Shown: positions 5,318-52,941 of the stretch, in pieces
Numbering within the stretch: the first letter of the stretch is position 1
Layout of the letters: every line of letters begins with the position of its first letter
Origin: Minutocellus sp. GHC0000111
Lineage: Eukaryota
Reading direction: 5' to 3'
Assembly: GCA_977018835.1 (NCBI GenBank)
Contig: OZ361259.1
Location: 4,464,001 to 4,528,000, forward strand
DNA length: 64,000 nucleotides
Translations under genes and position numbers: made by a program
Notes under the pieces: model-generated
Told to the model about the DNA's origin: nothing
Database searches by the model: none
What the model saw: only the letters and a program-made list of their open reading frames with translations

Positions 5318-5703
5318 AAGAATTGGTCGGTGGTGCTCTAGAGCTAGCTGCGTAGGAACTTAAGTTCCTATCCGGCAATGGCTGTGGTTTGCTGGCAGTT
5401 GTTCTTCCTTGCGAGTTTCGATAAACAAAATGCTGGCGCCAAATTCCCAATTGCCCATTCAGCATGCGTGATCAAAATGACCTCGCGATCGCGGCGGCGA
5501 AGGCAAAATTAAGAATTGGTCGGTGGTGCTCTAGAGCTAGCTGCGTAGGAACTTAAGTTCCTATCCGGCAATGGCTGTGGTTTGCTGGCAGTTGTTCTTC
5601 CTTGCGAGTTTCGATACACAAAATGCTGGCGCCAAATTCCCAATTGCCCATTCAGCATGCGTGATCAAAATGACCTCGCGATCGCGGCGGCGAAGGCAAA
5701 ATT
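5318..5703. repeat. Tandem duplication, 193-bp period (5318-5510 / 5511-5703), upstream of the GT11 gene
   Basis: Two copies beginning aagaattggtcggtggtgctc; one substitution seen (ataaac vs atacac). Confidence 0.95.
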
Positions 5704-12334: not shown

Positions 12335-12961
12335 ATGCATTGTTGGTGTTTGGTACTATTTATCTACGCCACACGAAGGAGAAATTTACCATGTGTGTAT
12401 ATATATTTTGAGAGAATCCGGACAGAAGAGAGAAAGAGACCTCGTTATTGATTGATCCATGCGCAAGAAAATTACCTCCAGGACCAGTACTTGCTCTCAT
12501 ATGACTGCATAGAAGGAGTTCTACCTAGGGATCGAAGGGAAGGAATACCTTCTATTTTCATTGATATCTAGCTAGTCCATCCTTGTTGGCGTTGGTGTTG
12601 TCCTGCTTTTGTTATTTTGAATGACCTGCGAGGTCACATTGCTACACACATGCAAAAGCACAAGCACAGCGCATCTAGATCTATTCATGCATGTGCTGCA
12701 AATGAACATCACAGTAAAAGTAGAGAAAGCCGTTTCCCATGTCGATGACCATGGCGTATCGGTAGGTCTTCTCTCTCGTGTGCATCTCACTCCTGGCTGA
12801 CCGATTTGCAAATTCATTCATTCATAGCCCAAAAGCCCAAAATCAACAATGCGTCTGGCCGTCACCGCATCCACCACGGAAGGCAAGGCTGGCATATTGA
12901 AGGAATACCTCTAGCTAGGTATTGGCCAATTTCCTTGGACCAGAGCAAGCGAAGTAGAAGA

Positions 12962-13918
12962 ATGAGAGCTCTATTTGCCACCCTAACACCTCTGGTTTTG
13001 CTCCCGGCACTGTGTTCGGCGCTCACCCTCCCCACTCACCCGTCGCTATCGTGCAAGGGGCCTCATTCTCGACGGCACGACGCTGCAAAAATTGTCCTCC
13101 AGGCACGAGGTGGAGACGACAACAATGATGCTCCATCGCGCATTCCGTCCGTGTCATCAGTAACCAAATCCATATCCTATGGCTATCGCGCGCGTGTTGC
13201 AGCTGATCCAAATTTCCTGATCAAGAGCTTTCTGGAGGTGGCCTTGGCGGCGGGTACTCAGATGATGGCCGAGGTCTCACGTCGAGGTGCCAAGGGCTGC
13301 ATTACCGAGATCGACTTTGTCGTTGCTGGCGTCCTCACTGCGATTGCCGGCAAGTACTACAGCTCTTGGAGAGTTGCGCCGACAGCAACGCCTGATGGTG
13401 ATGGTGATGGTGATGAGACGGTAACTTCAACTTCAGTCCAATCAGGAACGCAGAAGAGCAAGGATGGTTTCTGGTCGAGAGTCCCAACCAATGCCTTCCA
13501 GCCCTATCATTTGGATGGCAAAACTCGGCCGACGGTGGCAGAGCGCTTTGGGGCACTTTTGGCACCTATTCCCACTCTGTTCCGAGCCGGGGTGATTGCC
13601 TCAGCCATTGGCTATGGTTTGACGAACTTTCTCATTTCGCTTCGTACTTTATTGCTTCCTGACTATGTCTCACCGACTATCAATGTGAACATCGTACACG
13701 CATGTGTATATACGGGTGCATTTATGAGCATCGTTAGCAATATCCGCTACCAGCTTCTTCAAGGAATAATCGAACCGCACATTATAGACCGGCTCTTTCA
13801 GCGATTGCCGCCCCTCCAAGCTGCGGCGACCTTTGGCGTTCGCTTCGCCAACGGACTGTTTGGGAGTGTGATTGCCATTGCTGGAATGAAATATTTCGGG
13901 TTGCAAAAGTTAAAGTAA
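12962..13918 (+). CDS. RETICULATA-related (DUF3411) plastid membrane protein
   Basis: RARVAADPNFLIK..E..AE..RRG..EIDFV, PTNAFQ, FMSIVSNIRYQLLQG; signal peptide. Confidence 0.85.
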   Translation: MRALFATLTPLVLLPALCSALTLPTHPSLSCKGPHSRRHDAAKIVLQARGGDDNNDAPSRIPSVSSVTKSISYGYRARVAADPNFLIKSFLEVALAAGTQMMAEVSRRGAKGCITEIDFVVAGVLTAIAGKYYSSWRVAPTATPDGDGDGDETVTSTSVQSGTQKSKDGFWSRVPTNAFQPYHLDGKTRPTVAERFGALLAPIPTLFRAGVIASAIGYGLTNFLISLRTLLLPDYVSPTINVNIVHACVYTGAFMSIVSNIRYQLLQGIIEPHIIDRLFQRLPPLQAAATFGVRFANGLFGSVIAIAGMKYFGLQKLK

Positions 13919-13945: not shown

Positions 13946-14848
13946 TTATGCTTTAGGGCTATTTCCCTTTCGAGGGATCAAAAAGACATCGTCTGGGTCT
14001 TGTTCACCCAATCGTTTGCCAACCCAGGCCTTGGACACCACCCTTATCGGGCGCATTCCCTTGAAGCGATCGAGCTTGACGTACACATTGTCGGCTGTCT
14101 TTCCAATCATGATCCCAGTTCGGCCCATATCGGGACCCTTTACCAAAATGACCAAATCACGAACATCTGGCGGGTCCTTCTTCGGATCAGCATATACCAG
14201 TGAGCTGGGCTTGATGCCCTTGAAGTACTTTTCGTTGGAAATGATGTCATCGTAATAAGTATACAGACCTCCGACCTGCATGTATCGATCAAAATGGAGC
14301 GACATGTCGGAATATGCAACGTAGGCGTCGTCTAAATCCTTTCGCAGTGTGGCCTGGCGGAGTCGTTCCACCGAGGCAAAGAATCGACCAACTTCATATC
14401 GCAATGCCACACGCAGACCCTTGTCCGTGGGTTCATCGGTCGGAAATGCCGAGTCTGTAAATTTGGTGAAAACCGGCACAAACGACCGAAGTTGGGAGGG
14501 ATACGCCGCAACCAAATCCCACTGTTCCTGCATTAAGTCTCGTTGCAACTCGTCCATTACACTGCCAACAGATCTGATGGTATTGGGCATGCCACCGAGG
14601 CGGGTCTTGGACTTTTGTTCGGGCTGAGCAATGGCCGTCTCGGCTCCGGCAAGACCAACAGCCGCACAGGCCGTGAACAGGAAGGTCCGCCGCGAGGGCA
14701 TATTCTCTGCAGGCGTGTCATCAGTTTCTTGCATTGATTCATGCAGCCTCATATCTATGCGTCCTGCATGTAACTCTCCACCCGAGATGAATGCAAATGC
14801 ACCCGCAGCAATTGATGCAAGAAGGCACAATCTAAATTGATGCCTCAT
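13946..14848 (-). CDS. Predicted thylakoid-lumen protein with a C-terminal KOW-like motif
   Basis: Signal peptide ending GAFAF, twin-Arg segment SRRTFL..AIA, C-terminal DLVILVKGPDMGRTGIMIG. Confidence 0.6.
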   Translation of the reverse strand: MRHQFRLCLLASIAAGAFAFISGGELHAGRIDMRLHESMQETDDTPAENMPSRRTFLFTACAAVGLAGAETAIAQPEQKSKTRLGGMPNTIRSVGSVMDELQRDLMQEQWDLVAAYPSQLRSFVPVFTKFTDSAFPTDEPTDKGLRVALRYEVGRFFASVERLRQATLRKDLDDAYVAYSDMSLHFDRYMQVGGLYTYYDDIISNEKYFKGIKPSSLVYADPKKDPPDVRDLVILVKGPDMGRTGIMIGKTADNVYVKLDRFKGMRPIRVVSKAWVGKRLGEQDPDDVFLIPRKGNSPKA

Positions 14849-15039
14849 TTTTGCAACACGAATAGGCAGTGGAGCGAAGCGGACTTGCGAAATAAGAGCG
14901 AAGGAGCGGCTTTCGACTGGGATGCCGGCAACACCTCACGTTTGCCGGGATGATTCAGACGAAACCTTCGTCGTGTCAGGAGAGCAGCCGCACTGTGTTG
15001 ATGGCCATGAGATGCGTTTAGCGCAATTTTCGCGCCGAA

Positions 15040-15570
15040 TTGTGGGTACCGCACGGTGGGGATGAGCTGGCGACAGTGGTTAGCAGCAGGCACTAAAACT
15101 GCATTCCTGTAGTGCCCAGTTTTTCTGCTGACCACCACCTTCGCCTCCTCTCGTCTCAACTGACCAAGCCACAACCATCTGCGATTGCTGCCGTTGCAAT
15201 TGCTAAGTCAGCTTACAGTACCGGCTCCCAGAGCCTGTCTCTCTCTCTCTCAGTAGTTAGTTAGTTTTAAATTCCCTCAAACCCGTCTAAGAAGTTTCAT
15301 TTACCGCCGGTAAACACCGGCGGCGAACGAAACTAACTAATAACTACTACTGAGAGAGAGAGAGACAGGCTCTGGGAGCCGGTACTGTAAGCTGACTTAG
15401 CAATTGCAACGGCAGCAATCGCAGATGGTTGTGGCTTGGTCAGTTGAGACGAGAGGAGGCGAAGGTGGTGGTCAGCAGAAAAACTGGGCACTACAGGAAT
15501 GAATGCAGTTTTAGTGCCTGCTGCTAACCACCGTCGCCAGCTCATCATCCCCACCGTGCGGTGCCCACAA
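15040..15570. repeat. Long inverted repeat (15040-15267 vs 15330-15570): 3' terminus of the element paired with its extended internal complementary region
   Basis: About 228 bp of reverse-complement match with 2 substitutions and 4 micro-duplications, separated by a ~62-bp spacer. Confidence 0.95.
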
Positions 15571-15762
15571 CGATGATACATCGAACACAGTACCTCCCTC
15601 CGCTGATTCTCCCAACTCTATGCAACTTAGTAGAACATGAAATGCAGTTTAACTACGTGAACTGGAGCTGGCATTGGCGGTAAATGAAACTTCTTAGAGG
15701 GTGAGGTCCCTCTCCCCCTCCTCCTTTCCGTAGCACAGATCGGCCAATAATGTGTGTCGTGC

Positions 15763-17049
15763 TTAGGTGAACAGGGCGAAGGGGGGCATTGGAGTCCCGA
15801 AGCCGGCATTTCGGCCAATACTGTTGATGCCGGCTAAGGATTGGCGGCAATTTGGGGTCCTTGGGTCTTCGCGATGGCTCGTCGAGTGTGCGTGGGGCAC
15901 GTTGAAGAAGGAACCTCGTTGGATCATGCGTGTGGAGACTCCGGATGTAAATTCTTGGACCTGGCGACGGATGTACTTGAGGAAGGCGTCACTGGACCAC
16001 CGCCCTACCAGCATGATTGTGTACGTGGGAACATCATTTAGACACACTGCCATTGCTGCTCCGCTGCGAATGGAGTGTGTGATCCGAATTCAGAGGGATG
16101 GCAGCCCAGGACGTCCTCTCCAATCACTGTGGCCGACGCTCGGATCTTGTCAACTATTCGGGTGGCAGGAATGTGTTTTAACACGCCGTTGACCACGAAG
16201 GCATTTACCGGCGCATCGCTGTTGGTGCTAGGGTGCCCTAGGACTCGTTTCACCAGGGCAGCCCAAGCTCGAACTGGGCAGAGGGTGGCGTCGTGGGTGC
16301 AGTGTTGCGTGATCGTGACGTCACGCTCGTCGTTCTTCTGGAACTCAAAGGTGACGGAGACAGAGTCTGCTGAGAGGAGGGACCGGTCGTTGTGATGCAT
16401 GCGCCGTCGGCCGCGGCAGAACTGGATGTTGCGGAGGCGGAGCAGCTTGGTCCTGCGCTCACCGCTGACTCTGGGGTGTTCGCAAGACCTCATCGCGAAG
16501 AAGAAGGCGCCGACGGCTAGTTGCCCGACTGCACGGTCCTCTTCCGTTTCCCTGACGGAGGCGATCTCTCGGAGGAGCCGGCAGGTGATCGCCTTCTCCG
16601 GCCGCTCGGTCGGGTCGGACTGGCTGCATCCTCGGAACTGCCGCTGTAGAAGGAATGAATGAAGGCTGGCCGATGTCGTCTTTCCCTGGGTCCCTGCGCT
16701 GGTTGTGCCGGAAGGAGGACGAGCATGCACATGAGACGGTGTCTCGGACTGTCGACGCAGCCAGTCGCGAAAACTTTGGCCCCGAAAAGCTGGCTTGTCG
16801 GACGGCGTGGGCAAAGGTGCAGAGAATGACTGTTCAGTCTCGGGGTGATGCCTTGTCGAGGAAGACGTCGTCCCCGGTCCCGATGAGCTGCAGGAACTCA
16901 GTCCAGCGGCTCCACGCGAGAGCGTGCTTCTCGGCAGTGGCCGTTGTAACAACTGCTTCCTGACGGGCAGCGTCCGCGCCTGCGAGACAATCCAGGAAGT
17001 AATCTCGTTGGGTAGTGGTGCAATCCTGAAATTTGAGGGAAGCTGACAT
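15763..17049 (-). pseudogene. Tyrosine recombinase of the retrotransposon (one stop, frameshifts near 16655 and 16078)
   Basis: AWSRWTEFL N-terminus overlapping the RNaseH frame; FFFAMRSCE, LCPVRAW, (T)HSIRSGAAMA, GRWSSDAFLKYIR give the R..HxxR..W..Y catalytic set. Confidence 0.88.
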
Positions 17050-19117
17050 TCGGGAGATGACAGAAGCAACTTCGTGAGGTCAGCATCAGAGAGATCGGCA
17101 TCACGAGAAAGAGAATCGGCCTCCGGATTGCGCTTCCCCTGGAACCACTGTGAGCACAGCATGGCGTTGGTCTCGATGAGCATGTCGGCTAGTTTCCGCG
17201 CCGTGACCAGCTTGACCGCTACGTCGGCATCCTTCTCGCCGTGAGACACGAAGTTCGACTTCCTGAGCCATCCCTCGGCCGTGGCGCTGTCGGTCCCCGA
17301 CAGCACGCAGGAGAGGGTTGGCAGGTTGCCCTCGATGTGGTCGATCCATGGGCCGATGCCGGCGGCGAGGAACTCCAGGTAATTGAGGGTGAACCGGCCC
17401 CATGGCTCCTCGGGGAGGGCAAATCTCCACGCTCTGCCGGATGAGGACCATCCGCCGATGCCGTGCTCGCAGGCGTCACTTGTGTGCTCGTGGGTGGGGC
17501 AACGGTGCGTGAGGAGGTTCATGCTCATGCCATCGGCGGCCCTTCGGAGGAAGCGGAGCCATGGGTTGAGGTCTTCTGCATCCTCAGAGTCGAACCGTTG
17601 GCGGCCGTGGCGGCGGGCCTTCCAGAGCCGATCCCGAAGGCGGCTGAGGAAGTGTCGTGCGGCTGGAATGATGTGTCCGACGTGGTTTAGCCTTCCGACC
17701 AAGGTGTCCAGCTCTGATCTGGTGGCGCCGCGGGCTCTGAGGAGCCGAAGCATGTCATCGCGCCAGGCCAGGTGCTTGCTCCAAGGGAGCCTCAGCAGGA
17801 GCCGCCGGGTGTCAGCATCCCACCCCAAGAGACACAGTGCTTCGGAAGGCGTCCCCTCGGCGAGCAGCTTCTTGATGGAGGCAAGGTCATCTCTGGGCAG
17901 TGGCTCGCTGTCGGACACCGGTCGGCCAAGCGCGTGGATGGCGAGGAGGGTGGCAGCGGACATCCGATCCTTGTTGTCGCCCAGGTCAGGGGCTGCGGCG
18001 ATGAAGTCATCGATGTGCGGCTCGACGATGCCATCCTTGTTGTCGGGAAGGGTTACGATCATGTCCAGGGCCGGCGCGAACGGCACATCGTCGCCCTCCA
18101 CCTTGGGGCGACCCAAGTGCTTCTGCTGGGGGCTATGGAGCTCTGACGGGTCCCAGTTCGAGCATTGCAGGAGGGCCCTGGCCAGGTCGGCCGCCGATTC
18201 GGACATGTTGCACCACTCGCTCGGGCAAGGGCGGCCGCCGAAAGTCAGCCGGAGGGACATGAGGGCAATGCCATCCAGGGTGGTGATCGTTTTGACGGCC
18301 GTGCTGGGAGCCAAGTGGGCCCGGCGACACGCAGCCTTGAAATCGACCTTCTGCAGGAGGATGGGAGCACGGGGATGCTTGTGACGGGCGTCTACGATGT
18401 AGTGGATCACTCGCCGGAGGGCATGGCCGAACACCACTGGCTGGTGGTCCTCCATGCGCACTCTGTTGTTGACGGACCGTGCGGTGCCGATCTCGAAGGA
18501 TTGGTCGTGAGTCAGGCGGTCCTTGGGCATGATCTCGCCAGCCTCGCTGATCGTGTTCTGTGCTGCCAAACCCATCGGAGCCACCTCCGCTCCAGGAATG
18601 AGGGGCGCGACCTTTGCTGGCAGAGGGAGGGCGAAACCGCGGGTCACGTCGTCGAGAACTTGGTCCTTGAGCACCTCCGGCCTATCCCTGGCCGATTTGT
18701 GGTTGCCTCGGCCGATGTTCTTTTTATCACGCTGTCCAGTCTGCTTTCGTCGCTCACCGGATCGAGGGCCCAGTCGGATCCACTGTCGAGAATGGAGCGG
18801 AAGCGGGGCCACAGCGGGTGCCGGCCAAGAGTCGGCTCCAGAAGACTCAGGTCTCTGAACTCCGATCCCGGTTGGAGTGGCGACCCGCCCTGCGCCTCGA
18901 GTGCCCTGCTCAGAGAACGATCGTGTTTCTTGAGGACCGACCAATTGTGAGCGGCGGCCTCCGTGAAGAGCTCAAATCTGAACTCCGTGGGCTTCGGTGT
19001 GGCCGACGGGGACTCGACTGCTCGTCGGACGTGCTGCACCAAGGTGGAAACATCGAAGATGGGCTCTAGTTCCCACGTGGAATTGCATGAGGCGAGAAAA
19101 AGGTGAGATGTGTGCAT
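16660..19117 (-). pseudogene. Reverse transcriptase-RNase H of the retrotransposon (frameshift near 18722, catalytic motif HIDD)
   Basis: KDRLTHDQS, KVDFKAACRR, LRLTFGG..CPSEW, HIDD, LLGW..DT, LVGRLNH, SDACEHGIGG, NYLEF, TDSATAEGW, QGKRNPEADSLSR. Confidence 0.9.
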
Positions 19118-19724
19118 GCTGCACGTTCACGAGCATGCGGGTCTGTCCGACCGTGGTGGGCCCATTGTGGGCGCTGGGCTGCTCCGTTTGTTGTAGGTGT
19201 TCCTTCACCTGTTGGTCTCACTTGCCATTTTGGCGTGTCGGTTCTGCTTCTTCCTTGCTGTGCGTAGGGGAACCAGGGGGAGACTGTGCTTCGGGTTGGG
19301 GCTGCTTGCCTAGGAGATCCTTCTCTCGCTGGCCTAGCCAGTCGAAGAGGTTGTCGGTGGCTTCCGCACCGCCAGCGTTAGTGGTGCTGGAGCCAGAGCC
19401 TGAGATGCTGTTGTGGGCGCAGGCATCACCGCTGGTGTTAGGGGGACCAGGACCCGACCGAAGGTCACTGCTAACGCCTCGGCCTTCTGCTCCGGTGTTA
19501 GGGGCACCGGAGAGCCTGGATTGGTTGCTGATGTCGTTGCGACCGCACACGCCGGATTTTGGGGCACCGGACAACCTTGGGCGGCTGGAGCCACCGGGGC
19601 GGATCGACGCCGACGTGTCTGGCTGCACTCGACGGCGCTTGGAGGGACGAGCTCGGCCGGCTGGCCGAGATGTTTCTCCAGCATCCTCCGAGGGTGGGCC
19701 ACGCCTCCGTGCCCACCCGATCCG

Positions 19725-21782
19725 TCATTCCTCCGCCTCCTCGCACTTCCGATCGCATTTCTCGACGTGCTGCTCGACGGGTCCTCTCTCCGATGCCTTA
19801 AGAGGCCTCTTGACATGCGACTTCTTGAGCTCACACGAGGATCCGGCGCCGCAGACACCTATCAGGATGAATGGAGGGCAGAATTTACAGCCATTAATTT
19901 CAGGTCTGTCCTCATAGGGCTCGGATTTCTTGCCATGCCGTTTTGCAAAGTTGCCGGGGTTGATGTCGAACGTGACGAAGTGTTCGCACTGGTGGGCTCT
20001 GCCGCTGGCGCCGCCCGTCTTTTGCTTCTTTTTCGGACTGGTTCTTGGCTCTGATTTGTCAGAGTCGGAATCCGAGGAAGGGGTGGGAGCGTCGGCCGAT
20101 TGGACGAGCTTGATGTGGCTGGGGTAGACGAAAGGATTCTGAGTCTTCATCATCTTTTTGGACTCGTCGGCCATTGAGAAGCAAGAGAGGTCGTTGCCGG
20201 CGTCGTCGGGGGAACGGAGACAAGCTTTCCAGAATGCATGGATGGAGGCGTCGACATTGTGGAACATCGCCAGCCAGAACTTCTCGCCATGGCTCTCGGC
20301 GATGTCGCGGTGCTGGTCCTCGTGTGTCTTCATGTGACTGAGGACCCTGGCGACGTAGCGAGCGGGCTCGGAATCCTCTCCGGCAAGGAAGGAAATGCCA
20401 GCGCCGAAGGCCGAGATGTGACGTTTGGCACCGTCGCACTCGGTTGAAGACCAGTAGTTCTGCTTCAGAAGAGCCTTCACCTGAGTCGAGGCATGTCCTT
20501 TCTTTTGAGAGGCGGCGAGGCACAGGGGCGCATTGCTGCTGCTGGAGTTTGCCGGGCTAAAGGCGAAGACAGAGAAGCCATCGTAGATTTTCTTGTCGCT
20601 CTTCCCGAAGCCAAAGAGGCGGACATAAGTGGTGAGGCCCTGGAGAGATGTCCTGACTCCGGTCTTGCCCTTTACATGCAGCTCGAGGCCGACGGCTGCT
20701 TGCGTGAGGTTTGACTCTTCCAGCAGTGCTTTCAATCCTTCGGGAAGATTCGAGTCGATCGCTGCTACATCATCGTCATGCTCGGTCGAGACCCGGCAGA
20801 AAGCGGCACAGGCCTTGAGGATGGCGCCATTCATCGAGTGCTTCTTGTCGACCTTGTCAGTGCAGGCCATGACTGCGCCGGTGAGGGAGGATGCTTCGGA
20901 CGCGGCCCTAGTCATGGCGTTGGCCGCGGCAGCAACTGCAGAGTCGGTCGGGGCGCCACCGGCTGGTGGTCCGTCGCCACTGGCGCCAGTGATGTGCCGA
21001 GCGTGCATCTCACTGGCGCATGTCTTGAGAGCCGGGTCCGTCGTTGGGTGCAAGCTGACGGCCGGGATGTCACCTTGCTCGGACGTGGCGACAAACCACA
21101 GCCACTTGACGACGTGTTGAACAGCCTCATTGGAGCGAAGACCTGCTGCGCCATGACCCTCGTCGTCACCGCTGTCTGATGCGTCATCGCTGCCGGCGGC
21201 GTCCTCATCCAGCCGACGTTTGATGGCGGACAGGATGGCCCAAGGCGATGCCTCGTGCTCTTCCAGAACATTCTGCAGAATCGAAGGTGGCAGCAGCACA
21301 AGGGACTTAAACTTCGTGGAGGCACTCCGGTGGCGGGTGTTGGAGCCTTCCTGGGTGAGACCGGTTAGGGCGGCTTCTGACGGTGCCCCCAGCGTGGCTT
21401 CCACCGATGGGGCTAGGACCTCCTTGTGCCGCAAGAGGCTAGGTTGGGCCAACGATGTTGGCGGGGCTGCATCGTCGATCCCGAGGAGCCCACCCAACCT
21501 GACGTCGGGCTGCATGGTGGTGCCTCCCTGAGCCACGGCATGGTGAATTACCACGACTTTCCCTTCTGGATGGTGGTGGGCCAGCATGGACAAACCCTCA
21601 GCGTCGCGGATTTGCTGCTGGATCGCTCGGGCATGGCTCTGGACCACAGCGGCCGTGGGGTCGGTTTCACAGACGTTGTCGGCGAGGAATATCTGGAAAT
21701 CTCGAGCTACGGCGGCGTCGGCCCCGGCCGGTGTCTCTTGTGCCAGCAGGACTGACTTCCAGGTGTTGAAAGATGAAGCCAT
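19725..21782 (-). CDS. gag-like ORF of the retrotransposon
   Basis: Long ORF upstream of RT with a C-terminal Cys/His knuckle (FCPPFILIGVCGAGSSCELKKSH); position typical of gag. Confidence 0.65.
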   Translation of the reverse strand: MASSFNTWKSVLLAQETPAGADAAVARDFQIFLADNVCETDPTAAVVQSHARAIQQQIRDAEGLSMLAHHHPEGKVVVIHHAVAQGGTTMQPDVRLGGLLGIDDAAPPTSLAQPSLLRHKEVLAPSVEATLGAPSEAALTGLTQEGSNTRHRSASTKFKSLVLLPPSILQNVLEEHEASPWAILSAIKRRLDEDAAGSDDASDSGDDEGHGAAGLRSNEAVQHVVKWLWFVATSEQGDIPAVSLHPTTDPALKTCASEMHARHITGASGDGPPAGGAPTDSAVAAAANAMTRAASEASSLTGAVMACTDKVDKKHSMNGAILKACAAFCRVSTEHDDDVAAIDSNLPEGLKALLEESNLTQAAVGLELHVKGKTGVRTSLQGLTTYVRLFGFGKSDKKIYDGFSVFAFSPANSSSSNAPLCLAASQKKGHASTQVKALLKQNYWSSTECDGAKRHISAFGAGISFLAGEDSEPARYVARVLSHMKTHEDQHRDIAESHGEKFWLAMFHNVDASIHAFWKACLRSPDDAGNDLSCFSMADESKKMMKTQNPFVYPSHIKLVQSADAPTPSSDSDSDKSEPRTSPKKKQKTGGASGRAHQCEHFVTFDINPGNFAKRHGKKSEPYEDRPEINGCKFCPPFILIGVCGAGSSCELKKSHVKRPLKASERGPVEQHVEKCDRKCEEAEE

Positions 21783-21798
21783 GGTGATCAATGCTCGA

Positions 21799-23343
21799 TC
21801 ACCTTGCCTGTCGCCTTCGGCGTCGGTCCTCTCGGCGCTGGATGTGGTTCAGATCGGCCGTGAGGGTGAGGATGCGGTCGGCGATGTCGGGCTCTCCAAA
21901 GGCGGATAGAAGGATGTTGAATGCCTGACGCGGTGGCTCTGATGCCAAAATATCGGCGGTGATGTCTCGCAGGCGGACAGGTGCCTCGAGATCGTCGGGG
22001 CGCCGGTGAATTGATGCTCTTGGCCAGACGCGGCAGTGGGCACCCTCCCAGCGATTTGGATCGGCCGCATCGTCTAGCCACCTCGGATAGACTCGATGGT
22101 AGGTGCCTACCCAGCGGTGTGAGGGGGACGCCGTTAGGTCTGCCAGCCTTCCCCAGTGTTCGTACGGGTTGACCTCCACTCGGTGTCCAAGAGGATTGCT
22201 GTCAGGCCGAGTGTGTCGGAGTCGAGCGCTGGTGAGGCTCTCGAATCCACTGTCCCAGTTGATAATAGCTTCAGTGAGTTGGTCCGGTCGTAGGTGCTGC
22301 CGTCTCTGGAACGGGTACGGCGAATCCAGCGGGAACTGGGTGATCAGGGCGAAAGGGCCGATGCTCCAATGCCACACTGACGCCAGCCCGCTCGGTTCGG
22401 TCGTGTGCGTCACGTGGGTAGAAGAGTGGCCTTACCTCCCACTCGAAATAAGTGAGCGGCAGCGTTGGTGGAAGGTCGCTCCCCCGTGAACCTATGCAAG
22501 CGTGCGGTGTCGGCTCTAGAGGTCTGCGCCCTCTCTGGCCGCGATGCGCCGTCTTTCTTTTCGGTCGGCCTGGTAGTGGAGGATGCACTGCGTGAGCCGG
22601 CAGAGCTGGGGCCAGATGCAATGGTGTTGCCGCGCTGCTGCTACCGATGCCTCCGGACACCTTCGCCCCCGATGCTGTTGAACCACGACGCCTCCGTCTG
22701 CCCGTGGTAGTCGGCACAGTGCACTGCTCAGGTCCAACTCAGTTGCCGTCTCGTGTGCCCGGCGGATCTCAGGTTCGGCAAGGCGCGTGGCTATCAGCCA
22801 GATGTTGACGAGGTACGTGGGCCAGTCCGGTGACACCAAGAAGGCTTGTTGCTCGAGGTACTCGGCGACCAGACCGTGCGCTACTGGAGTAAGGTGTGAA
22901 ACGGCTGCTGCTGGGGATGGCTGGCACCCCGTGGCTCTCGATGGGAGGCAGCCTGTGGCGCGCTCGACGAGATCGGTGAGGTACTCGGTAACGTCGATTC
23001 GGCCCTCGGCAAAACTTTTCCACCAATCCAGTGCGTCTGTGGTCAGTCTCTCGGACGACGCCCTGGCTGTGAAGAAACTTCTGCGCCCGGGCCGAATCTG
23101 ACGTCTGAGTCTGTCCCAGCCTCGTGGAAGGTCAGGAGAGTCTCCTCGGACGATGAGGTCTCTTGCCACTCCGAACAACACGTGATCCAGTTCCGGTCGA
23201 TCTGGTTCGGCCATGCACTGTTCCGCCGTCGTAGAGACTGGTATCGGATCTACGTGCACTATCAACGGAGCTGAGCCGTGGCCGTTTGACTCCGGAGTCG
23301 ACTGCGGTCTCTGGACTAACAGCAGTGGTGGTGTGTCGGCCAA
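21799..23343 (-). pseudogene. Additional ORF(s) of unknown function at the 5' end of the retrotransposon, broken into pieces
   Basis: Consecutive minus-strand ORFs 22516-23343 and 21799-22413 between the 5' ITR and gag. Confidence 0.45.
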
Positions 23344-23381
23344 TAATTACGAACTCGTAGAGAGTAGCACCAACCTAATGC

Positions 23382-23529
23382 TAAAACTAACTAACTACTG
23401 AGAGAGAGAGAGACAGGCTCTGGGAGCCGGTACTTTAAGCTGACTTAGCAATTGCAACGGCAGCAATCGCAGATGGTTGTGGCTTGGTCAACTCAGCGGA
23501 GGGAGGCACTGTGTTCGATGTGTCATCGT
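23382..23529. repeat. 5' terminus of the element: ITR (23382-23490) plus a 37-bp extension (23493-23529) complementary to 15570-15606
   Basis: 109-bp reverse-complement match to 15161-15269 (1 mismatch); tcagcggagggaggcactgtgttcgatgtgtcatcgt matches the reverse complement of 15570-15606 with 2 mismatches. Confidence 0.95.
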
Positions 23530-23729
23530 GAGTTGGTCTGGAACTCTGGTCCCGGAACGGAAATTAAGATTGGTCCCGCACTGTCAGATAACGGTTTGCA
23601 CGTAATAGACTTTCTAGATCTATTGATTCGATTTCTCGACTTCTCTTGTTTACTTGTAGATCTACCTTTCTAAATAACACACATGAATTAATATTATTCC
23701 CTCAGAACCTTTACTCTAAAGACCGATGG

Positions 23730-26339
23730 TCATACATTGGAAGTCTTTCCAGCTCCAAGTCCGATCTGCTCGGAAATCGGAACGAGATTGGCTAGCGTCT
23801 GACCAATGGCATCGGCAAGAGAAGACCCAATGAATTTCTCATCTTGAGTCTCGTCATCTTCATCGCCAGAGCCACTATCGAATGTGCCGTCTCCATCTAC
23901 GCCCATTGATCTCTCTTTCGTCCATGCAACTTGCTTGGCTACAGGCCCCCCTCCCAGAATACTCCGCAGAGCATCAGATTTGCCAAGCTGCTTATGGAAC
24001 CACTCCATTCGTTCATCGAGCTTCGTGTTGTCCCGCTCGGCTCTCTTCCTTGCCTCGTATCGAGTGATGGCGGCTGCCTTGATAAACCTCTCTGTGGCAG
24101 CTTCCCAACTGAACTGATGTGCAAGCTCCGGGGTCAAGGGTTCGGGATCATGGGCGAGCGCCCACTTCAGACTTGCTGCAAACTCCCACTTATTCCGATA
24201 CATGAGGCAGTTGGGGAATTGTCGGAACCACATGTTCGAAGGATGGTACGGAATGATGGCGAATTTTCCCATCGCTAATGCCTCAGCAGTTGTAGTGCAA
24301 AGTACCTCTGTCACGGAAGGGTTGATGAAAATCTTGTGGCGTTTGATTGACGCATGATCCACTCGGCCTGGAAAGGTCGCAGGTATTGGTCTCCTTCTGA
24401 ACTCGTGCCGGCTGGAAGGTAGATCGAATTGAACCGAATCAAGCGATGGACTTATCTTGGGAATACTAGGAAGAATACCAAGCAGCGACTCAGTTTCGGT
24501 CTCTTCAATTTCATCCGCTCCTGGTTCCGATGATGACTCGTCACTCTCGTCGCTGGCGCTGCCTGATAAACTTGAACTTGCATGCTTTCTTCCGTGATAT
24601 GCTCGCATAATCTCCTTCTGTTCGGGGCCACTCCCGTAGATATCAATAGAAAAGTAATCTCCGGTAACTTGACGGTAGAAATCCTGCAGCTCCAGCATTT
24701 TGTCAAGGCCCTTGGCCCAAAGAAGCTTTCCGATGAAGTACGCCTGTACCGAATCTTCGGCATCACCAGTCTCTTCGTCATTGGTCATTTTGGATAGTGT
24801 TTCATTGCCTCTTCGACGACCTTCGTCCAAGAAGTCCGCACGTACGCCGTGTACGTTGGAAATCATTTCCTTTTCTGGGGCAAAGCTCTGCAGTACGCCT
24901 GACAACTTAATCACCTTGTGACAATAGGCACGGATCATTGCGGAACTCATTACTGCAATAGCTGGTGCCGTCCACAGACCATGGTACTGAGAAGATGCGT
25001 AGCTCACATAGTTGGTATGGACGATGCCTACCGAGTATTCAAATTTCTTTGCCCATCCTTCTCCCGGGGCGCGGTACCAATTTAGGTGCTCTGGCTCTTC
25101 CAACACAACAACGTCGGCATCTTCCTCAGGAATGAGAGAAATCAAATCGCCCATGGCAAAGATTGATTTTAGACCAGGATGATACCTCGCTGGATACCAC
25201 AGTATCCGAAGGCCCGACTCTTCATCGGCCTCGGCGGGCATGCCCGCATCGTCGCGCAGCCATGACCGAATGTATTGCTCTTGCGCTGTTTGATTTGCAA
25301 ACTGATTGGACGAACCATACAACTCAAGTCTATCTTCCTCCAATTCCAACCACGGAATCACCAATGTCACCCATTGTTGTTCGTTTGGTTCGCTCATGGT
25401 TGAGATGTGATTGTTGAGTTCTCGTAAGTTTCTACATAAGTAGGCCGCTCGAAGGAGAGGATTCACCGCAGTGCCTGTAAACCATGGAAGCGACGCCGTA
25501 GTGACTACAAACACTTTTCGACCCGGGCGAGTCAAATCAGACTGGTGTGTAATCTCTAAATCATGACTCGGTATGGTGTCATCATGATCCGTCTCGCTGG
25601 ATATGGCGGCGTCCATTTCCGATCGCAAAAGAGCCTGCGAGACCAGTTCGATACTATCGTAGAAGCTTGCCTTGGCCTTGTTGGACGTATGATTTGTCCA
25701 CATCGACCATTCTCGGAACGCCTCTCGACTCGGTAACGTCGTTTTTGCCAGAGTGGCCTTTGCCGTGGCCTTGAGCTTGTGTCGACCTCGCCGTACTTTC
25801 TGACGGACCTTCCTATGTAGCCTATTGGAACTTGCTGCTTCTACTTTTGCCTTTGACTTTGATTGTTTCGGCCTCTTATTTCTTCCTGCGGGATCATTGC
25901 TACCATTCTCTTTTGGATCAGATGAACCACCGCGTATCTCATTAAGCATTTTGTCAACATTTGTTCCTTCCACTTTTGCGTTCGTTTTTCTACGCTTTGA
26001 TTCAGGAAACTCATCACCAACGCCATCCTTTTGGCCAAATGCACCACCGCGTATGCAGAGATAGCCTGCACACCAAATTGCATTCTCATTGGTCCGCATC
26101 GTTCCTCGCCGTTTTTGCAGCGGTCGCCATCGTGACCAGTTCCCTCCGTCAGCCCGTCCACCAGCAAGCGTGAACGCCACGGACGAGTATAGAAGAAGCA
26201 AAGGTATGTGGGTTCTACGCGCTCTCATCGTTTCAACCAAGTGCCGCCCTCTCGACATGGGCATAAGATGTGATGGATACCCCAAACAGCCAAACAGGAA
26301 GCACACAGCAACACACAGCAAGCAATGCCGAGAGGTCAA
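23730..26339 (-). CDS. DGD1: Digalactosyldiacylglycerol synthase (GT4); start uncertain
   Basis: VVTTASLPWFTGTAVNPLLRAAYL, LEEPEHLNWY, GIVHTNY, YCHKVIKLS, NVHGV, YFIGKLLWAKG, FINPSVTEVLCTTTAEALAMGKF. Confidence 0.93.
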   Translation of the reverse strand: MTSRHCLLCVAVCFLFGCLGYPSHLMPMSRGRHLVETMRARRTHIPLLLLYSSVAFTLAGGRADGGNWSRWRPLQKRRGTMRTNENAIWCAGYLCIRGGAFGQKDGVGDEFPESKRRKTNAKVEGTNVDKMLNEIRGGSSDPKENGSNDPAGRNKRPKQSKSKAKVEAASSNRLHRKVRQKVRRGRHKLKATAKATLAKTTLPSREAFREWSMWTNHTSNKAKASFYDSIELVSQALLRSEMDAAISSETDHDDTIPSHDLEITHQSDLTRPGRKVFVVTTASLPWFTGTAVNPLLRAAYLCRNLRELNNHISTMSEPNEQQWVTLVIPWLELEEDRLELYGSSNQFANQTAQEQYIRSWLRDDAGMPAEADEESGLRILWYPARYHPGLKSIFAMGDLISLIPEEDADVVVLEEPEHLNWYRAPGEGWAKKFEYSVGIVHTNYVSYASSQYHGLWTAPAIAVMSSAMIRAYCHKVIKLSGVLQSFAPEKEMISNVHGVRADFLDEGRRRGNETLSKMTNDEETGDAEDSVQAYFIGKLLWAKGLDKMLELQDFYRQVTGDYFSIDIYGSGPEQKEIMRAYHGRKHASSSLSGSASDESDESSSEPGADEIEETETESLLGILPSIPKISPSLDSVQFDLPSSRHEFRRRPIPATFPGRVDHASIKRHKIFINPSVTEVLCTTTAEALAMGKFAIIPYHPSNMWFRQFPNCLMYRNKWEFAASLKWALAHDPEPLTPELAHQFSWEAATERFIKAAAITRYEARKRAERDNTKLDERMEWFHKQLGKSDALRSILGGGPVAKQVAWTKERSMGVDGDGTFDSGSGDEDDETQDEKFIGSSLADAIGQTLANLVPISEQIGLGAGKTSNV

Positions 26340-45013: not shown

Positions 45014-47317
45014 CGAAGTCCGTTTCGCGAGAAATCGAGCGCAGGGTCGGGACCAAAACAGCGACTTTTTGGGCCCGCAACCGCCTGAATCTTAGATCTA
45101 CCGGCATTGAATACATGTACAATGCAAAGTACATGTATTGCAGCAGCTAGTATCCAGATCTACAATCCAATCTAGTATTATTAAACACAATATAACTTAA
45201 AAGCACCGCAGGACTAATTATCCATGGTTGGATCAGCAGGAGGAGGAGCGATAATTTTCCCATCTATCCGAACCATGCCATTTTCAGTCGGCCTGAAATC
45301 CTTTCGCACCCCAACATGAATGCCTTCACCGTTTCCAAGAAAATCATTGTTGCCTTTCGCAACGATTACCTTCTTTGCAATTCTATGAGCCTGGATGTAT
45401 GCCGATGCGATCTTCCAGTTTTCCAGCCCCATCCAAACTTCCTCCGCTGCATCCCAAGTCTGATCCTCTGTCAAAACCTTCAGCCCCTCCCGATCGCGGC
45501 ACAACATTGTATGCTGCTTTGACATGCAAGGGAAAACAGACAGATCAAGAACATTCATATGGGGCATTTGCGGGGCCTGAGGTTCCCAACGCCATCCCTT
45601 GTCCCGACAGTATCCTTCCACATATTCCACAAATTCAGTCTCGGCATGGGGCCCAGCATTGTCGCCCTGGAAAATAGGGACATAGCCTTCAAACTTTCCT
45701 CCAGGTCCGACCAAAGCCTCAACATCCGGAAATATCTTGTTCTCAAACAAAGCTTTCAGTGGGAACTTGGGATTATCAAGGGTGCCATGGCTGCATCCAG
45801 TCACCGCGCAATCCACAAGGTATAGATCGTCTTTCTTCCGAACCACCGGGCCGCAATATTTGATTCTACCATCTGCCTGCCGCACCGCCTCCCTTACCAT
45901 CTGCCTCGCAATTTTATGCGCCTGAGCCCGAAAAAGTCCAAGCTTGAACGCAATGCCGCCATTCTCAATGCTGTCAATAAAAGCCAAGGCAGTGACAGCC
46001 ACCACCATGCACTTGTTGATGTGATTTCGGTGATATGCCGAGAAGGACCGAGGATCAATACCCAATTCTGCAACTTGCTTGGCATACGATCGAAGAACCA
46101 AGCCCCAAAACCACTTCTCATCGAACATAACAAGGAGAAACTTGCCACCGCCGAGCCCCCAATTGTTTCGGAATTTCCGCGCAAATGCCAAATGTTTCTC
46201 CATCTGATGTGTAGTAAGGAGAGGGATGATCCTTTCGGCATAGTACCGGAACCCTTCCCGCGACATTATCCACCGCCGTATTGCCGAGTAGGAACACCAA
46301 AAGTTGACATCCACCTCCAGCTCCCGCCAAGATTCCCGAGGATTTCGTATCAGAGCATCAACAATAACATCTCGAATGTATGGCTGCATAGCCAGATGAG
46401 ATCTCCTCTTCATCTCCCACATCGCCTTCTCAGATGCAGGTAGAGCACCATACGCCTTCATCCATCCCGAAAATCGTGCACCATGCTCTGCGCTGGACAG
46501 CACCGAATAGTCCACCTTTGCCTGCTCCCTGCACTTGGCAATTGCAAAGAGACATGGTGCAGTATACCGCCGGGTCGCCGTTGCAAGATCGTCGATGACA
46601 GAACGGAAGGCGGCCGAATCAGATGAATCATCGGCACTCGTTGGGAAGCAGTATACCGGTCCAAGTATGCCGATCGCGTCATCGAAATGCTCAGCTTCGA
46701 CTTCCGCCCGAGACACAAATGGATTGAACACATACTCACCGCTGTCTTGGCCATCATCATTGACCAGGAGAAAACTCTCAAGATTGACGGGCCCGAGGAT
46801 TTTGAGAAGCACATGCTCCTCAATGTCGTCAGTCGACTCGTCTGCCGGGCGATAAGGGCCGAGAACATGCCCCTCGACATGGATGATGTCGTGGCAATAA
46901 CTGAATCGGTGTACGACAAGGCCGCGGAGATGTTCCACTCCTCAGTTACCTTCATCTACAAGTTCAACGGCGTGAAGCGGGAGCTAAAGAAGCTCAAGCT
47001 CATCCCGGATTGGCTGTGGTGCGAGATCCGGGACGAATGCATCGTACTGCCGATCCGAGGCGAGTATCATGCCATCGTTCAAGATGAAGACGAGATGGAG
47101 GCCGAACCGTCGCGTCGCACGAACGCGTCCATTTGATTAGAGCCGCTGAAATCTAAAGTCTTATCCGAATTATTGTTTCACATGAAGATAAATCAAAATT
47201 AGAGTAAAAATAGCCATTTTCTTAAATATTTCAGCATGACTATTCTTCGAGGCGCTTTTCAATCCCCTCGAAAGCAGTCAAAAACCGGGCGCTCGATTTC
47301 TCGCGAATCTGACCTCG
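45014..47317 (-). mobile_element. Tc1/mariner-superfamily DNA transposon, 2304 bp
   Basis: 29-bp TIRs 45014-45042 / 47289-47317 (3 mismatches), TA target duplication at 45012-45013 and 47318-47319, internal transposase. Confidence 0.9.
45214..46938 (-). CDS. mariner-like DDD transposase (true start uncertain)
   Basis: FDEKWF, FQGDNAGPH, QAPQMPHMNVLDLSVF; 38 residues between the 2nd and 3rd Asp by my count; HMG-box-like segment upstream. Confidence 0.85.
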   Translation of the reverse strand: MEHLRGLVVHRFSYCHDIIHVEGHVLGPYRPADESTDDIEEHVLLKILGPVNLESFLLVNDDGQDSGEYVFNPFVSRAEVEAEHFDDAIGILGPVYCFPTSADDSSDSAAFRSVIDDLATATRRYTAPCLFAIAKCREQAKVDYSVLSSAEHGARFSGWMKAYGALPASEKAMWEMKRRSHLAMQPYIRDVIVDALIRNPRESWRELEVDVNFWCSYSAIRRWIMSREGFRYYAERIIPLLTTHQMEKHLAFARKFRNNWGLGGGKFLLVMFDEKWFWGLVLRSYAKQVAELGIDPRSFSAYHRNHINKCMVVAVTALAFIDSIENGGIAFKLGLFRAQAHKIARQMVREAVRQADGRIKYCGPVVRKKDDLYLVDCAVTGCSHGTLDNPKFPLKALFENKIFPDVEALVGPGGKFEGYVPIFQGDNAGPHAETEFVEYVEGYCRDKGWRWEPQAPQMPHMNVLDLSVFPCMSKQHTMLCRDREGLKVLTEDQTWDAAEEVWMGLENWKIASAYIQAHRIAKKVIVAKGNNDFLGNGEGIHVGVRKDFRPTENGMVRIDGKIIAPPPADPTMDN

Positions 47318-47404: not shown

Positions 47405-48442
47405 TTAGAGGAACAACTGCTGGGACTCGTGGATGGGCTGCTGCGATTCATGGAACCATCCCGATGCGGCCCAGCGCTCTCGTGAGTTGGTGGCCATTAC
47501 TTCATGCGGGAGTGTTACACTGTCGAACAACACCAGGGTCCCTCCTGTCGGCGCTACATCCTTGACTGTCTCCCCAGGGTCAGCCTTGAAGTATGCGGTC
47601 ACAGCAGATTTGGGTTGCTCCAAATAGTGGAACCGCCTACCAAGATCATGATCCTGAATCAGCAAATTTTGTACAAAGAAATCGCTCGTCAAGAACAGAT
47701 ACGGGTCGGACTCGAATTCCTTGGTAAGATATATCCGCCGTTCACCGTCGTCGCTGTCAATGTACATGGCACACTTCCCGCTGATACCACCCCGTCGTCC
47801 ATCCAGGAACACAGGTCGCTCCTTTGGATCGCCCTTGGTCGGTGGCAACCACCCTATTTGCAGATCTCCCAGCGGAGCACCCACAGGCTTGCTGCTGCGG
47901 CTTATCCGTTCGTACGTTCGCAATTCTCCCCCATCTGCATCGGCATCCCAATCCTCCTCGTTAAGATATACCAGCCAACTGATCGATCGACGGGTCGGCT
48001 TGGACCAACCTGTTCGTCCTTTGAGTTCTTCGTGATGCTCATCGACGTGCCGTGCCAGATTGGCACCAGGTCCGAACCTTGTGAAGCTGATCTCATGGTT
48101 ATTGGGTCCATCCGGTGTGTCCAAACCTGGTCGATCCAAACCCTTGGCCAGCTCATATCGAAGCTGGGCGATAGTTGCCGTCAAATCACGTCGGGCGTCG
48201 GCATCTCCCAGTGTGTTGGAGACAAAGGGCCCGTCGCGCTTCTGGGAGGGGATGTACGCCGGTAGTACCGCCCGGTCCTTGCTGGCATCGAATGAAGCCT
48301 TGTCCTTGGCCCCGGCCTTTTGGCCGTAGCCAGCGAGGGCATCGACAATGAAGGCCTTGTCGTCATAGTACAAATTCCGTGCGTCGGACCGTAGACGAGA
48401 TAGCACCGAAGGAGAGAGGTAGTTGGGCAGTACGGCAATGCC
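47405..48442 (-). pseudogene. 2OG-Fe(II) oxygenase (prolyl-hydroxylase-like), apparently 5'-truncated
   Basis: RHVDEHHEE, RRSISWLVYLNEEDW..GGELR, GGTLVLFDSVTLPHEV..RWAASGWFH; upstream of GIAVLPNY the frame is simply antisense to the neighbouring deaminase. Confidence 0.7.
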
Positions 48443-49789
48443 GAGCCTTGTGTCATGTGCGCCGGTGCAATCTACTGGGCTGGTATCAGCAACGTGGTTT
48501 ATGGTTGCAGTGCCGATGCCTTGGAGAAGATCAGTGGCCCGGGTGGCTTTGATATTGACATTCGAAACCTTTACGCACAAGCCAAGGCGGGTTGTCGACA
48601 AATGTGTGTGCGTGGTCCCTGCCTTGAAGAGGAGGCACTTCAAGTTCATAGAGAGAGTGGGTGTTGGGCAAACAGTGAAGAGAAGGAAGAAAATGACACA
48701 AAAGACGATGGAGGAGAGGTATCGGAGGTTGCTTTGGATAGTGAAAAGAAGGAAGAAAATATCTCAAAAGACGATGAAGGAGAGGTATCAGAGGTTGCTT
48801 TGGAGCGATCACTCCTTGCTTCAGGAATTGGATCTGCTGCGGCCATAAAAGGAGCAACTGTACCAACTATTGACATGTCCCTCCCAGACGATATCGTGGC
48901 CGAGCAAATGTGGAAAGCTGCAAATGAAGTTGGATTCTTTACCGTCATCAACCATGGAATTTCCAAGGAATCGATTGATAATATCTTTGCCGCTTCCTTG
49001 GCCTTCTTCTCGCAATCCGTAAAAGAAAAGGAGACGCAATCGCCCTTCGATAGAGCTCTCAACAGTGGATATGAGTATTACAGCCAAGTGCGTCCATCTA
49101 CTGGAACGACCGACCAGAAGGAGTCCATTCAAATCACTGCCCGAGAAGGGTGCATGGGTGGTAGGTGGCCAAGCTTTCCCAATAGTTTCAAGTATGTCGC
49201 TTCGACCATGACAAAAGAAGCGCATGAATTGGCATGCCGAATAATGACACTACTCGAGCCCAAAGCTTGCGCCCATCTGAAGCCAGGCACGTTGGCAAAG
49301 GCCCACAACCTCTGGAGCAACGATGGTCAGTGTACGCTCCGGTTGATACACTATCCACCGATGCGTGCTGATGAGCTTGAAAAGCTGACTCGGCCTGGAA
49401 ACGTTCATTGGAGAGCAGGAGCTCATACCGACTGGGACTGCATCACGTTGCTTTTCCAGCGAGTTGGACAAGCTGGGCTGGAGTGCAGGGCCAATCCCAG
49501 AGCTGAGAGCGGTAATGGTACTGACAGTCAGTGGATTCCCGTTCCATCCGTAGAGGGAGGAATCGCAGTCAACATTGGCGATATGCTCTCGCGGTGGAGC
49601 GATGGAAAATTGTTCTCGAATTTGCACCGCGTGCGAATGCCCACCGTAGAGGAATGTGGTTCGTCGCGGTATTCTGTCGCCTTCTTTGCCCAAGCGGACA
49701 AATCACAAGTGATTACTAGTCAGGAAACCGAGCCAATCACCGCAGGAGACTACATCCTTTCTAGAATCAAATCCAATTACTCCTCGTAG
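48440..49789 (+). pseudogene. Nucleoside/nucleobase deaminase (C-terminal half) fused to an IPNS-family 2OG-Fe(II) dioxygenase, apparently 5'-truncated
   Basis: AEPCVMCAGAIYWAGISNVVYG (no upstream HAE); acidic 22-aa duplicated linker; VPTIDMS..GFFTVINHGI..GAHTDWDCITLLFQ..NIGDMLSRWS..HRV..RYSVAFF. Confidence 0.78.
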
Positions 49790-52047: not shown

Positions 52048-52527
52048 ATGAACGGGGCCAATGTGAATCTAGATGACGGTGCTACGTTCGATGAGCTGAC
52101 GGCAGCCCTCAAGGAGACTCTGAATCGTAAAGGAGTCCTTCGGCAGATTCGATCATCCCTCAGAGCCGAGGCATTCATAGCTTTGCAGCAGGCCGGAGAG
52201 AGCAATGCTGCCGAAGATTTGGAAAGATCTGTCGGCTGCGAAGGAGGAGGGAAATTACTGCTCCGTCCCGAGAATGCTGTCATCAACGAGCTCATTCGAG
52301 AGTACTTAGAGTTCAATGGCTATAGTGGCACGGCTTCGGTGCTGGAGATCGAGGCTGGGGTCAGTACCATTAGTGGCGATGATCAGGAGAATGAGCTGTG
52401 CCGAGAGATGATGAAGATTGAGCTTGGAGTCAATGAGAATACAAATGAAAAGAGGGCGGAGAGGAGCAAGAGCGTTCCTCTTCTCTACGGCATTGTCGAG
52501 GCGTTGAAACGTCGGAAGAATGGGTAG
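52048..52527 (+). CDS. FOPNL: LisH-domain centriolar protein FOPNL/FOR20
   Basis: ELTAALKETLNRKGVLRQIRSSLRAE..NAVINELIREYLEFNGYSGTASVL..E.G..VPLLYGIV. Confidence 0.82.
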   Translation: MNGANVNLDDGATFDELTAALKETLNRKGVLRQIRSSLRAEAFIALQQAGESNAAEDLERSVGCEGGGKLLLRPENAVINELIREYLEFNGYSGTASVLEIEAGVSTISGDDQENELCREMMKIELGVNENTNEKRAERSKSVPLLYGIVEALKRRKNG

Positions 52528-52941
52528 AAGATTTGATTTGATTTATCAATACAAATCTATCTAGCTCGTAGCTCTACCCGGCACGTGTATGTTTCTCCGT
52601 TTTTCCTCCAAACCTACGTAGCTAACAATCAAAACTAGCCAATTGTTATTCGCACTGGTGATTTACTATTGAGACAGGGAGAGTTGTCCGTTGCCTACTC
52701 CAATGCTTCCTGTAGTAACGTTTTGTCGTCATTGCACTCGGTAGAACAAATGCCGCCGCCTTTACCGTATACCACGCAGGGACATTCCTCTTCCACAGCC
52801 AACGGGAGATTCTTGCATGTAAGAAAGGTATCGGCATGTAGATTGGCACGTTTAGATTACCAATTGGGTTTTGGATTTCTAAATTTTATTCATTTATACA
52901 TGTGATGTATTAAATTTATACAAGGTGTCGATCTGCTAGTT

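Follow-up and report, generated by a model that had tools for sequence, protein, structure and literature searches.

How does a complete retrotransposon in a diatom genome come to be depleted of TpA dinucleotides in its interior, and to encode histidine or cysteine where its relatives encode tyrosine? The locus that raises this question is an 8,489 bp DIRS1-type element on the minus strand (15040-23528) of a 64,000-nucleotide stretch of Minutocellus sp. GHC0000111 (contig OZ361259.1, positions 4,464,001 to 4,528,000), referred to here as the window, in which all positions are given. The initial annotation, made from the window alone, had proposed a TpA-specific mutational process acting on two strands and in the direction opposite to that of fungal repeat-induced point mutation (RIP). 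Comparison with related copies bears this out, with changes that the copies acquired independently and that are confined to the element. We propose, with a probability of roughly 55%, that in each copy TA was independently converted to TG or CA on either strand by what would be a TadA/ADAT-type deaminase, acting on silenced DNA after insertion.

The TA counts that prompted the proposal are exact: six in 17041-18360 (observed/expected ratio, o/e, 0.14) and ten in the host gene at 60001-60540 (o/e 0.56). Across 2,644 windows of host DNA, each 1,320 bp long, o/e never fell below 0.31, and 22 host open reading frames (ORFs) ranged from 0.33 to 0.68, the GC-rich ones from 0.33 to 0.46. At the level of three GC-matched host ORFs the core of the element (16050-21850) would hold 82 TA, against 50 observed (Poisson p=9e-5). 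The long translation spanning the reverse transcriptase (RT), RNase H (RH) and tyrosine recombinase (YR) indeed has only two tyrosines; its ORF measures 977 aa stop to stop, not the 968 aa first reported, and is a chimera, in which short duplications at 18721 and 16653 shift the frames and fuse RT-RH to YR. Between the repeats of the element itself, three of the five substitutions in well-aligned parts are TA versus CA or TG (15047, 15577 and 15591), as had been noted. At six swap sites, among the 38 in-element differences listed from 116 rows, contigs of four public sequencing runs show the alternative product (CA where the window has TG, and TG where it has CA) and never TA, so the loss of TA is not an assembly artefact. 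CpG-type changes account for 11 of the 38 listed differences between the window copy and the majority sequence.

The direction of the change is given by relatives of the element. A homology search and cluster look-up yielded 175 proteins, 48 of which match the element at 85% or more over at least 100 residues; these sister proteins come from long contigs, apparently of one assembly, and, being fragments, may in some cases derive from one and the same copy. The tyrosine of the YxDD motif is His in 28 sister copies, Cys in five and Tyr in one, and the same column holds only Tyr (64) or Phe (45), and no His or Cys, in 109 outgroups; the direction is therefore loss of TA to TG or CA. Eight motifs had been put forward as former tyrosine sites. 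Besides HIDD, the outgroups support KAACRR (Tyr in 97/109), LCSQW (84/109), RSCEH (22/23), FRGCSQ (14/22) and MAVCL (23/25), while QFCRG (Phe 12 and Tyr 2 of 23) and LGCHP (Phe 19/20) prove to be phenylalanine columns instead. Over 30 Tyr codons the sister copies show 217 Cys, 211 His, 153 Tyr and four other residues, and the columns that vary often fit an ancestral TA (His/Cys/Tyr, Val/Ala, Thr/Met/Ile, Thr/Ala, Ser/Gly and Leu/Pro). In none of the RT proteins of this set of 48 does the number of tyrosines exceed four. We found no intact copies that share the His/Cys residues together with low TpA, and a TpA-specific excess of A:T to G:C change is present, as the initial annotation anticipated.

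The copies acquired these changes separately. Across 24 sites (250 testable pairs, one duplicate dropped) mean r2 was 0.047, against 0.047 after permutation, with all four gametes in 241 of the 250 pairs, and outside the main TA columns minor alleles were singletons in 109 cases and shared in 10. Independent, star-like copies of this kind imply radiation from a TA-intact source followed by mutation one by one, with almost no descendants left; the near-identical pairs P0012/P0158 and P0131/P0164 are exceptions. The two strands were affected alike: with three redundant proteins dropped there were 323 TG and 348 CA, neighbouring sites went in the same direction in 273 of 534 cases (275 expected), and the TG share per copy was not overdispersed (p=0.76 for RT, p=0.38 for ORF1). 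Protein P0157, considered as an allelic copy, sits on a contig equal in length to that of the window's host protein and is most likely the window locus itself, called through a frameshift; it was kept in the linkage test and dropped from the strand, context and singleton analyses.

The change also depends on neighbouring bases. Tyr codons became His or Cys in a ratio of 201:159 after a 5' purine and of 10:58 after a 5' pyrimidine (p=1e-10); the sense adenine of these codons always lies in TAY, and the antisense adenine was changed as often when it also lay in TAY and seldom otherwise. The o/e of RTAY is 0.02 in the core (one site in 5.8 kb) as against 0.80 in host DNA, and that of YTAR is 0.39 as against 0.34. 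The changed adenine prefers 5'-TAY, and YTAR is spared. In the RT region Tyr was retained in 5 of 232 observations at Tyr codons preceded by a purine (about 98% converted), above a background of A>G change per observation of 0.95% after A, 0.58% after C and 0.13% after G, that is, a tail in the order AA > CA > GA. C>T change reached 0.51% at CpG and 0.15% at other C (not before A), an excess which suggests that the copies were methylated. Arginine, the product of a double change, occurred once in 585 Tyr-codon observations, so a site is immune once the first change has occurred.

Mutational load is uneven both along the element and between copies. The terminal repeats and the internal complementary region (ICR) retain TA (o/e 0.75-0.88), ORF1 is about half converted with its first 150 bp nearly untouched, and among 26 ORF1 proteins the number of Tyr kept ranges from 0/15 to 14/15, an overdispersed distribution (p=8e-7). 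Termini and ICR differ at three TA sites, in both directions. Because the TG share is binomial while load is overdispersed, and because these TA differences run both ways, the process very probably acts at the DNA level on copies already inserted. Host DNA is spared: a linked host duplicate of about 650 bp, about 90% alike, keeps 27 shared TA and shows one CA/TG swap, a comparison that concerns a single duplicate only. That this duplicate and the perfect terminal repeats of the element retain TA speaks against the initial description of the process as repeat-targeting, at least in the sense of RIP.

A second kind of lesion accompanies the first. The window copy carries at least 11 private, exact tandem duplications of 2-4 nt (Table 1); among the indel rows listed (12 of 55), 11 are of this type and none is a single-base event, and assembly error is an unlikely explanation. 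In sister ORF1 proteins there are 15 insertions that keep the frame, and deletions are absent; the indel load correlates with that of TA changes (rho=0.58, p=0.002, from 25 of 30 proteins by a rough measure). On inspection, the duplications are not centred on TA.

The signature is not limited to this family. A scan covered at least 44 related loci from metagenomes, and three of these (L013, L014 and L015, on three other metagenome contigs) form one family, 38% identical in RT, that shows the same signature at the DNA level. Its members differ by 10-20 CA/TG swaps per pair at 97-98% identity, with 28-36% of TA sites differing as against 2-6% of CG sites; they show His/Cys as well as Thr/Met swaps, RTAY stands at 0.19 as against 0.53 for YTAR, and the C-terminal recombinase tyrosine is replaced by Cys in two of the three. 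The other 41 loci, pooled, have an RTAY of 0.73 and no signature, so the process is lineage-restricted; yet four of them (L035, L040, L001 and L022) have low RTAY (0.27-0.41). A related DIRS family (L019 1-1173 and L024 1-1401) is under the opposite regime, with 37 of 41 CG sites differing and a CG o/e of 0.18 in L019, which is a pattern of methyl-C decay. Another protein, P0017 (52% identical to RT), has Cys or His at three of seven conserved Tyr columns and is possibly from a third, partly mutated family. In viral contigs there were 48 pattern matches, none of them confirmed.

A process of this kind is already known from one preprint on an unrelated alga, and is not categorically new. In its available text, Mettrop et al. 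(bioRxiv 10.64898/2026.01.13.699255) describe, for viral DNA integrated in Bigelowiella natans, A:T to G:C change at TpA only, with a rate of about 6e-7 per site per generation, and the same spectrum arising de novo in mutation-accumulation lines; the enzyme is given as unknown and ADAT2 is proposed. The diatom element resembles that case in showing A:T to G:C change at TpA (to TpG and CpA) on both strands, in foreign DNA only with host genes spared, as the RTAY values of core and host indicate, and unevenly between lineages; TpA-poor RT and DDE genes are noted in the preprint too. The settings differ, a rhizarian with two viral inserts there and a stramenopile with a multi-copy retrotransposon near saturation here. 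The 3'-pyrimidine preference, the end-sparing gradient and the 2-4-nt duplications belong to the diatom element only and go unmentioned in the available preprint text, from which the words diatom and stramenopile are absent. The initial annotation knew of no such system in diatoms, and for diatoms this holds: no report of TpA hypermutation in diatoms was found in the literature searched, with subscription journals mostly outside its scope, and the accessible part of a study on diatom methyltransferases (PMC9998398) treats RIP only for fungi and never mentions TpA. What is new here is a second supergroup lineage, family-wide independence, the TAY motif, the end-sparing gradient and the co-occurring duplications.

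We envisage that new copies would be CpG-methylated and silenced, and that a deaminase would be drawn to the central part of the silent domain, where it would probably act on DNA that is transiently single-stranded. There the adenine of 5'-TAY would be converted to inosine, which would be read as G at replication. One hit would destroy the TA, so each site would end as TG or CA and almost never as CG, and nicking or slippage in repair might leave the 2-4-nt duplications behind. Two points favour TadA/ADAT chemistry: the motif is TAC-like, and polymerase eta would be expected to strike AA far more. Since the change cannot make stop codons, what would inactivate the copies is missense change in codons for Tyr, Ile, Val and Leu, together with frameshifts, and the process would be a genome defence, which is its likely function. 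A wider proposal is tentative and falls short of even odds: that diatoms possess a DNA adenine base editor which is guided by silent chromatin, reads 5'-TAY and sterilises families faster than insertions fix, with the duplications as repair scars, and that together with Bigelowiella it represents an old defence across stramenopiles, alveolates and rhizarians, mirroring RIP with other chemistry.

Several points weigh against deamination of adenine in resident copies. The sequence data are symmetric, and an altered A is indistinguishable from an altered T. The contrast between core and host is by itself only about two-fold, the case being carried by the copy data; those are proteins, and silent changes and most of the DNA context rest on the window copy. 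None of the RT copies seen was intact, and one cluster with 16 of its 31 members not listed could include the intact source. Single sites are strongly skewed (30:3, 5:28), which TAY alone does not explain; a rule based on the -2 base, tried by inspection, did not account for the skew. Lastly, lightly mutated copies lean to His (37:17) compared with heavily mutated ones (39:36; p=0.07), the direction expected of a two-stage process acting on RNA and then on cDNA.

Editing during retrotransposition is the best placed of the alternatives, and an unlikely one. A single-strand deaminase would act on RNA (giving TG) and on antisense cDNA (giving CA), with the paired inverted terminal repeats (ITRs) and ICR shielded. 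DIRS-1 has a long-lived single-stranded cDNA (PMC7192593, available part), the terminal hairpin keeps TA, the still-polymorphic insertion is already near saturation, and the star-like copies and the His:Cys trend with load (p=0.07) would also fit. Two exposures should, however, scatter the TG share, yet the share is binomial and load overdispersed, and the RNA and DNA rates would have to be coincidentally equal. Moreover, ORF1, which is unpaired, is half spared too, the termini differ from their ICR template both ways, and the B. natans spectrum arises in resident DNA.

The symmetry of the data also accommodates a lesion of thymine, in which oxidation or some other modification of the T of 5'-RTA within silent chromatin would make it pair wrongly with G, RTA on one strand being TAY on the other. 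Thymine-modifying dioxygenases mark transposons in dinoflagellates. The series of 5' neighbours of the changed A (T >> A > C > G) nevertheless resembles that of polynucleotide deaminases, and no result implicates a dioxygenase; we hold this explanation improbable.

The likeness to polymerase eta seen by the initial annotation fares worse. In the accessible part of PMC11507097 this enzyme is an A:T mutator at the WA motif (signature SBS9), with TA and AA above other contexts. A translesion polymerase of this type, recruited by repair in methylated repeats and misinserting G opposite T, would fit AA as the second most changed context and, as a slipping polymerase, the short duplications. Conversion at favoured TA sites (about 98%) nevertheless exceeds that at AA (0.95%) some 200-fold per strand, so that AA is not a hotspot here, whereas the TA:AA ratio of polymerase eta is only a few-fold. 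Patch synthesis would also give same-strand clustering, and none was observed.

There is still less to recommend prior methylation of the adenine in TpA to N6-methyladenine on the element, followed by deamination or misreading. It would explain the dinucleotide specificity and the chromatin targeting, but eukaryotic N6-methyladenine is mostly at ApT, and the searches detected no domain of an adenine methyltransferase in the element. Dismissed, too, are a trait of the family, conversion biased towards GC and an artefact of assembly, for although GC-rich host ORFs are low in TA too, one and the same codon reads His in some copies and Cys in others without linkage, it is on TAY context and not on A/T generally that the change depends, and independent runs confirm the states.

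Other described systems match in part. ADAR-type hyperediting of double-stranded RNA is strongest in long RNA duplexes and favours a 3' G, whereas here the 230-bp terminal hairpin keeps TA and 3' purines are disfavoured. RIP in Neurospora crassa likewise degrades transposon copies in place by dense, dinucleotide-specific transitions, but as far as the available text goes (PMC7296669) it is a premeiotic C to T change that clusters on one strand and is set off by duplication; the diatom process changes A to G, spares a host duplicate and makes no stop codons, and neither a C to T direction, one-strand clustering nor a duplication trigger was found. TadA/ADAT2 enzymes, in the accessible part of PMC12255301, convert A to inosine (read as G) in a TAC-like motif (the natural TadA motif being UACG), with Tyr to Cys and Thr to Ala recoding; their edits fall in RNA loops at low level, whereas the changes seen here affect both strands of chromosomal DNA and are fixed there.

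Mutational defence against repeats has so far been treated as a fungal (RIP) or animal (APOBEC) speciality directed at cytosine, of which the diatom process would be an adenine-side version. Our results carry what one preprint describes for a single species over to transposons and to a second major lineage, and the TAY motif provides a one-number screen, RTAY versus YTAR, that is usable for any genome. They also point towards an adenine deaminase that naturally acts on DNA, which would be of interest for base editing. Since the majority sequence is itself a dead mosaic of His and Cys, transposon ages, GC content and short-read consensus sequences are misleading in such diatoms.

The element is of DIRS1 type, in the definition given in the available part of PMC3266345, by its ITRs, its ICR with a circle junction, an RT-RNase H recognised by fold and a YR recognised by motif with a weak Pfam match. 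The RT-RNase H AlphaFold model (pLDDT 92.5) has retroviral, caulimoviral and Ty3 RTs as its best Foldseek matches (E=7.8e-10), and PF00589 was found weakly, under the curated cut-off, in 7 of 20 aligned YR members. The RT, ORF1 and ORF2 went unrecognised in sequence searches of Pfam and PDB, which also gave no PDB sequence match for the YR; Pfam found no methyltransferase domain after the RH, no dedicated profile having been used. The layout is that of DIRS-1 of Dictyostelium and DIRS1-like elements, as described in the accessible parts of PMC3266345 and PMC7192593, from which it differs in an extended ICR, an extra 517-aa 5' ORF and the lack of a detected methyltransferase domain. DIRS termini are rebuilt from the ICR on cDNA (PMC7192593, available part), and the ICR here has three short insertions that the right terminal repeat lacks. 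In the window copy ORF1 is disrupted at 22526, where 2 nt are duplicated, and at 22362, where 11 nt are deleted.

Table 1. Coordinates of the retrotransposon copy and its parts in the 64,000-nt window
Feature	Position	Strand	Remarks
Whole DIRS1-type tyrosine-recombinase retrotransposon copy	15040..23528	-	Bounded by empty-site joint and loose ends
Right ITR and right extension	15040..15269		TA kept (o/e 0.88)
ICR	15330..15615		Contains the circle junction (near 15570); complementary to the two ends of the element; TA kept (o/e 0.82)
YR ORF (approximate start)	15766..16660	-	Frameshift at 16075; R, HxxR and C-terminal Tyr present in alignment
RT-RNase H ORF (approximate ends)	16600..19108	-	HIDD for YxDD at 18017; frameshift at 18721
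Near-saturated core	16050..21850		50 TA left, only one in RTAY context; from TA counts
ORF2, putative gag	19725..21848	-	707 aa stop to stop; gag position; no Pfam match; TA o/e 0.25
ORF1	21793..23343	-	517 aa in unbroken sister copies; no Pfam match; partly mutated zone
Left ITR	23377..23528	-	Most TA kept (o/e 0.75)
Exact tandem duplications of 2-4 nt (at least 11), private to window copy	15542..23360		At 15542, 16075, 16653, 16713, 16948, 18721, 19247, 21194, 21571, 22526 and 23359

An empty-site joint of 15039 to 23529 occurs in contigs of all four public runs examined, which shows that the insertion is polymorphic; other copies have loose ends at 15035-15038 and 23528. Contig depth inside the element is about 30 times that of the flank, a rough guide to copy number that would put the family at about 30 copies. 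The ratio of element to flank depth in RNA run X5 is similar to that in DNA-like runs and uninformative on expression. Contigs of three runs join 15287 to 23511 at single-copy depth and represent an internally deleted copy elsewhere in the genome. At 14997, 43 bp from the insertion, the window and the fourth run have TG and the empty-site contigs of three runs have TA; this could be spread into the flank or an ordinary polymorphism, and from one such site we do not claim spreading.

Elsewhere in the window, an ORF at 45214-46941 (minus strand) with a Tc1-type transposase helix-turn-helix (PF01498, E=2.6e-6, under cut-off) has normal TA (o/e 0.47) and Tyr (3.3%) and looks untouched; it may be young, domesticated or otherwise exempt. 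At 48404-49789 (plus strand) lies a fusion in which the C-terminal half of a domain of zinc deaminase type (PCxxC; PF00383, E=1.8e-4, under cut-off) is joined to a 2-oxoglutarate-Fe(II) oxygenase. It adjoins an opposite oxygenase ORF of the same kind (47405-48763) head to head, no HxE half is seen beside it, and it is possibly a rearrangement junction. We considered this fragment as the responsible enzyme and rejected it, as nothing ties it to the process.

Among the 120 of 253 matches listed for a flanking host protein (12749-13918), the best ones with a name come from diatoms (Trieres, Odontella, Chaetoceros, Cyclotella and Cylindrotheca). Runs that contain 14001-24000 are labelled sponge, marine metagenome or a coded organism (4 of 20 rows examined), and the diatom may be living alongside a sponge. 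The end of one host gene is duplicated directly and has diverged (52137-52793 and 55120-55801, 3 kb apart; the TA-retaining duplicate described above), with a 50-nt piece again at 59688. Host DNA also contains tandem duplications of 222 nt (100% identical) at 2345-2791 and of 193 nt (99%) at 5318-5703.

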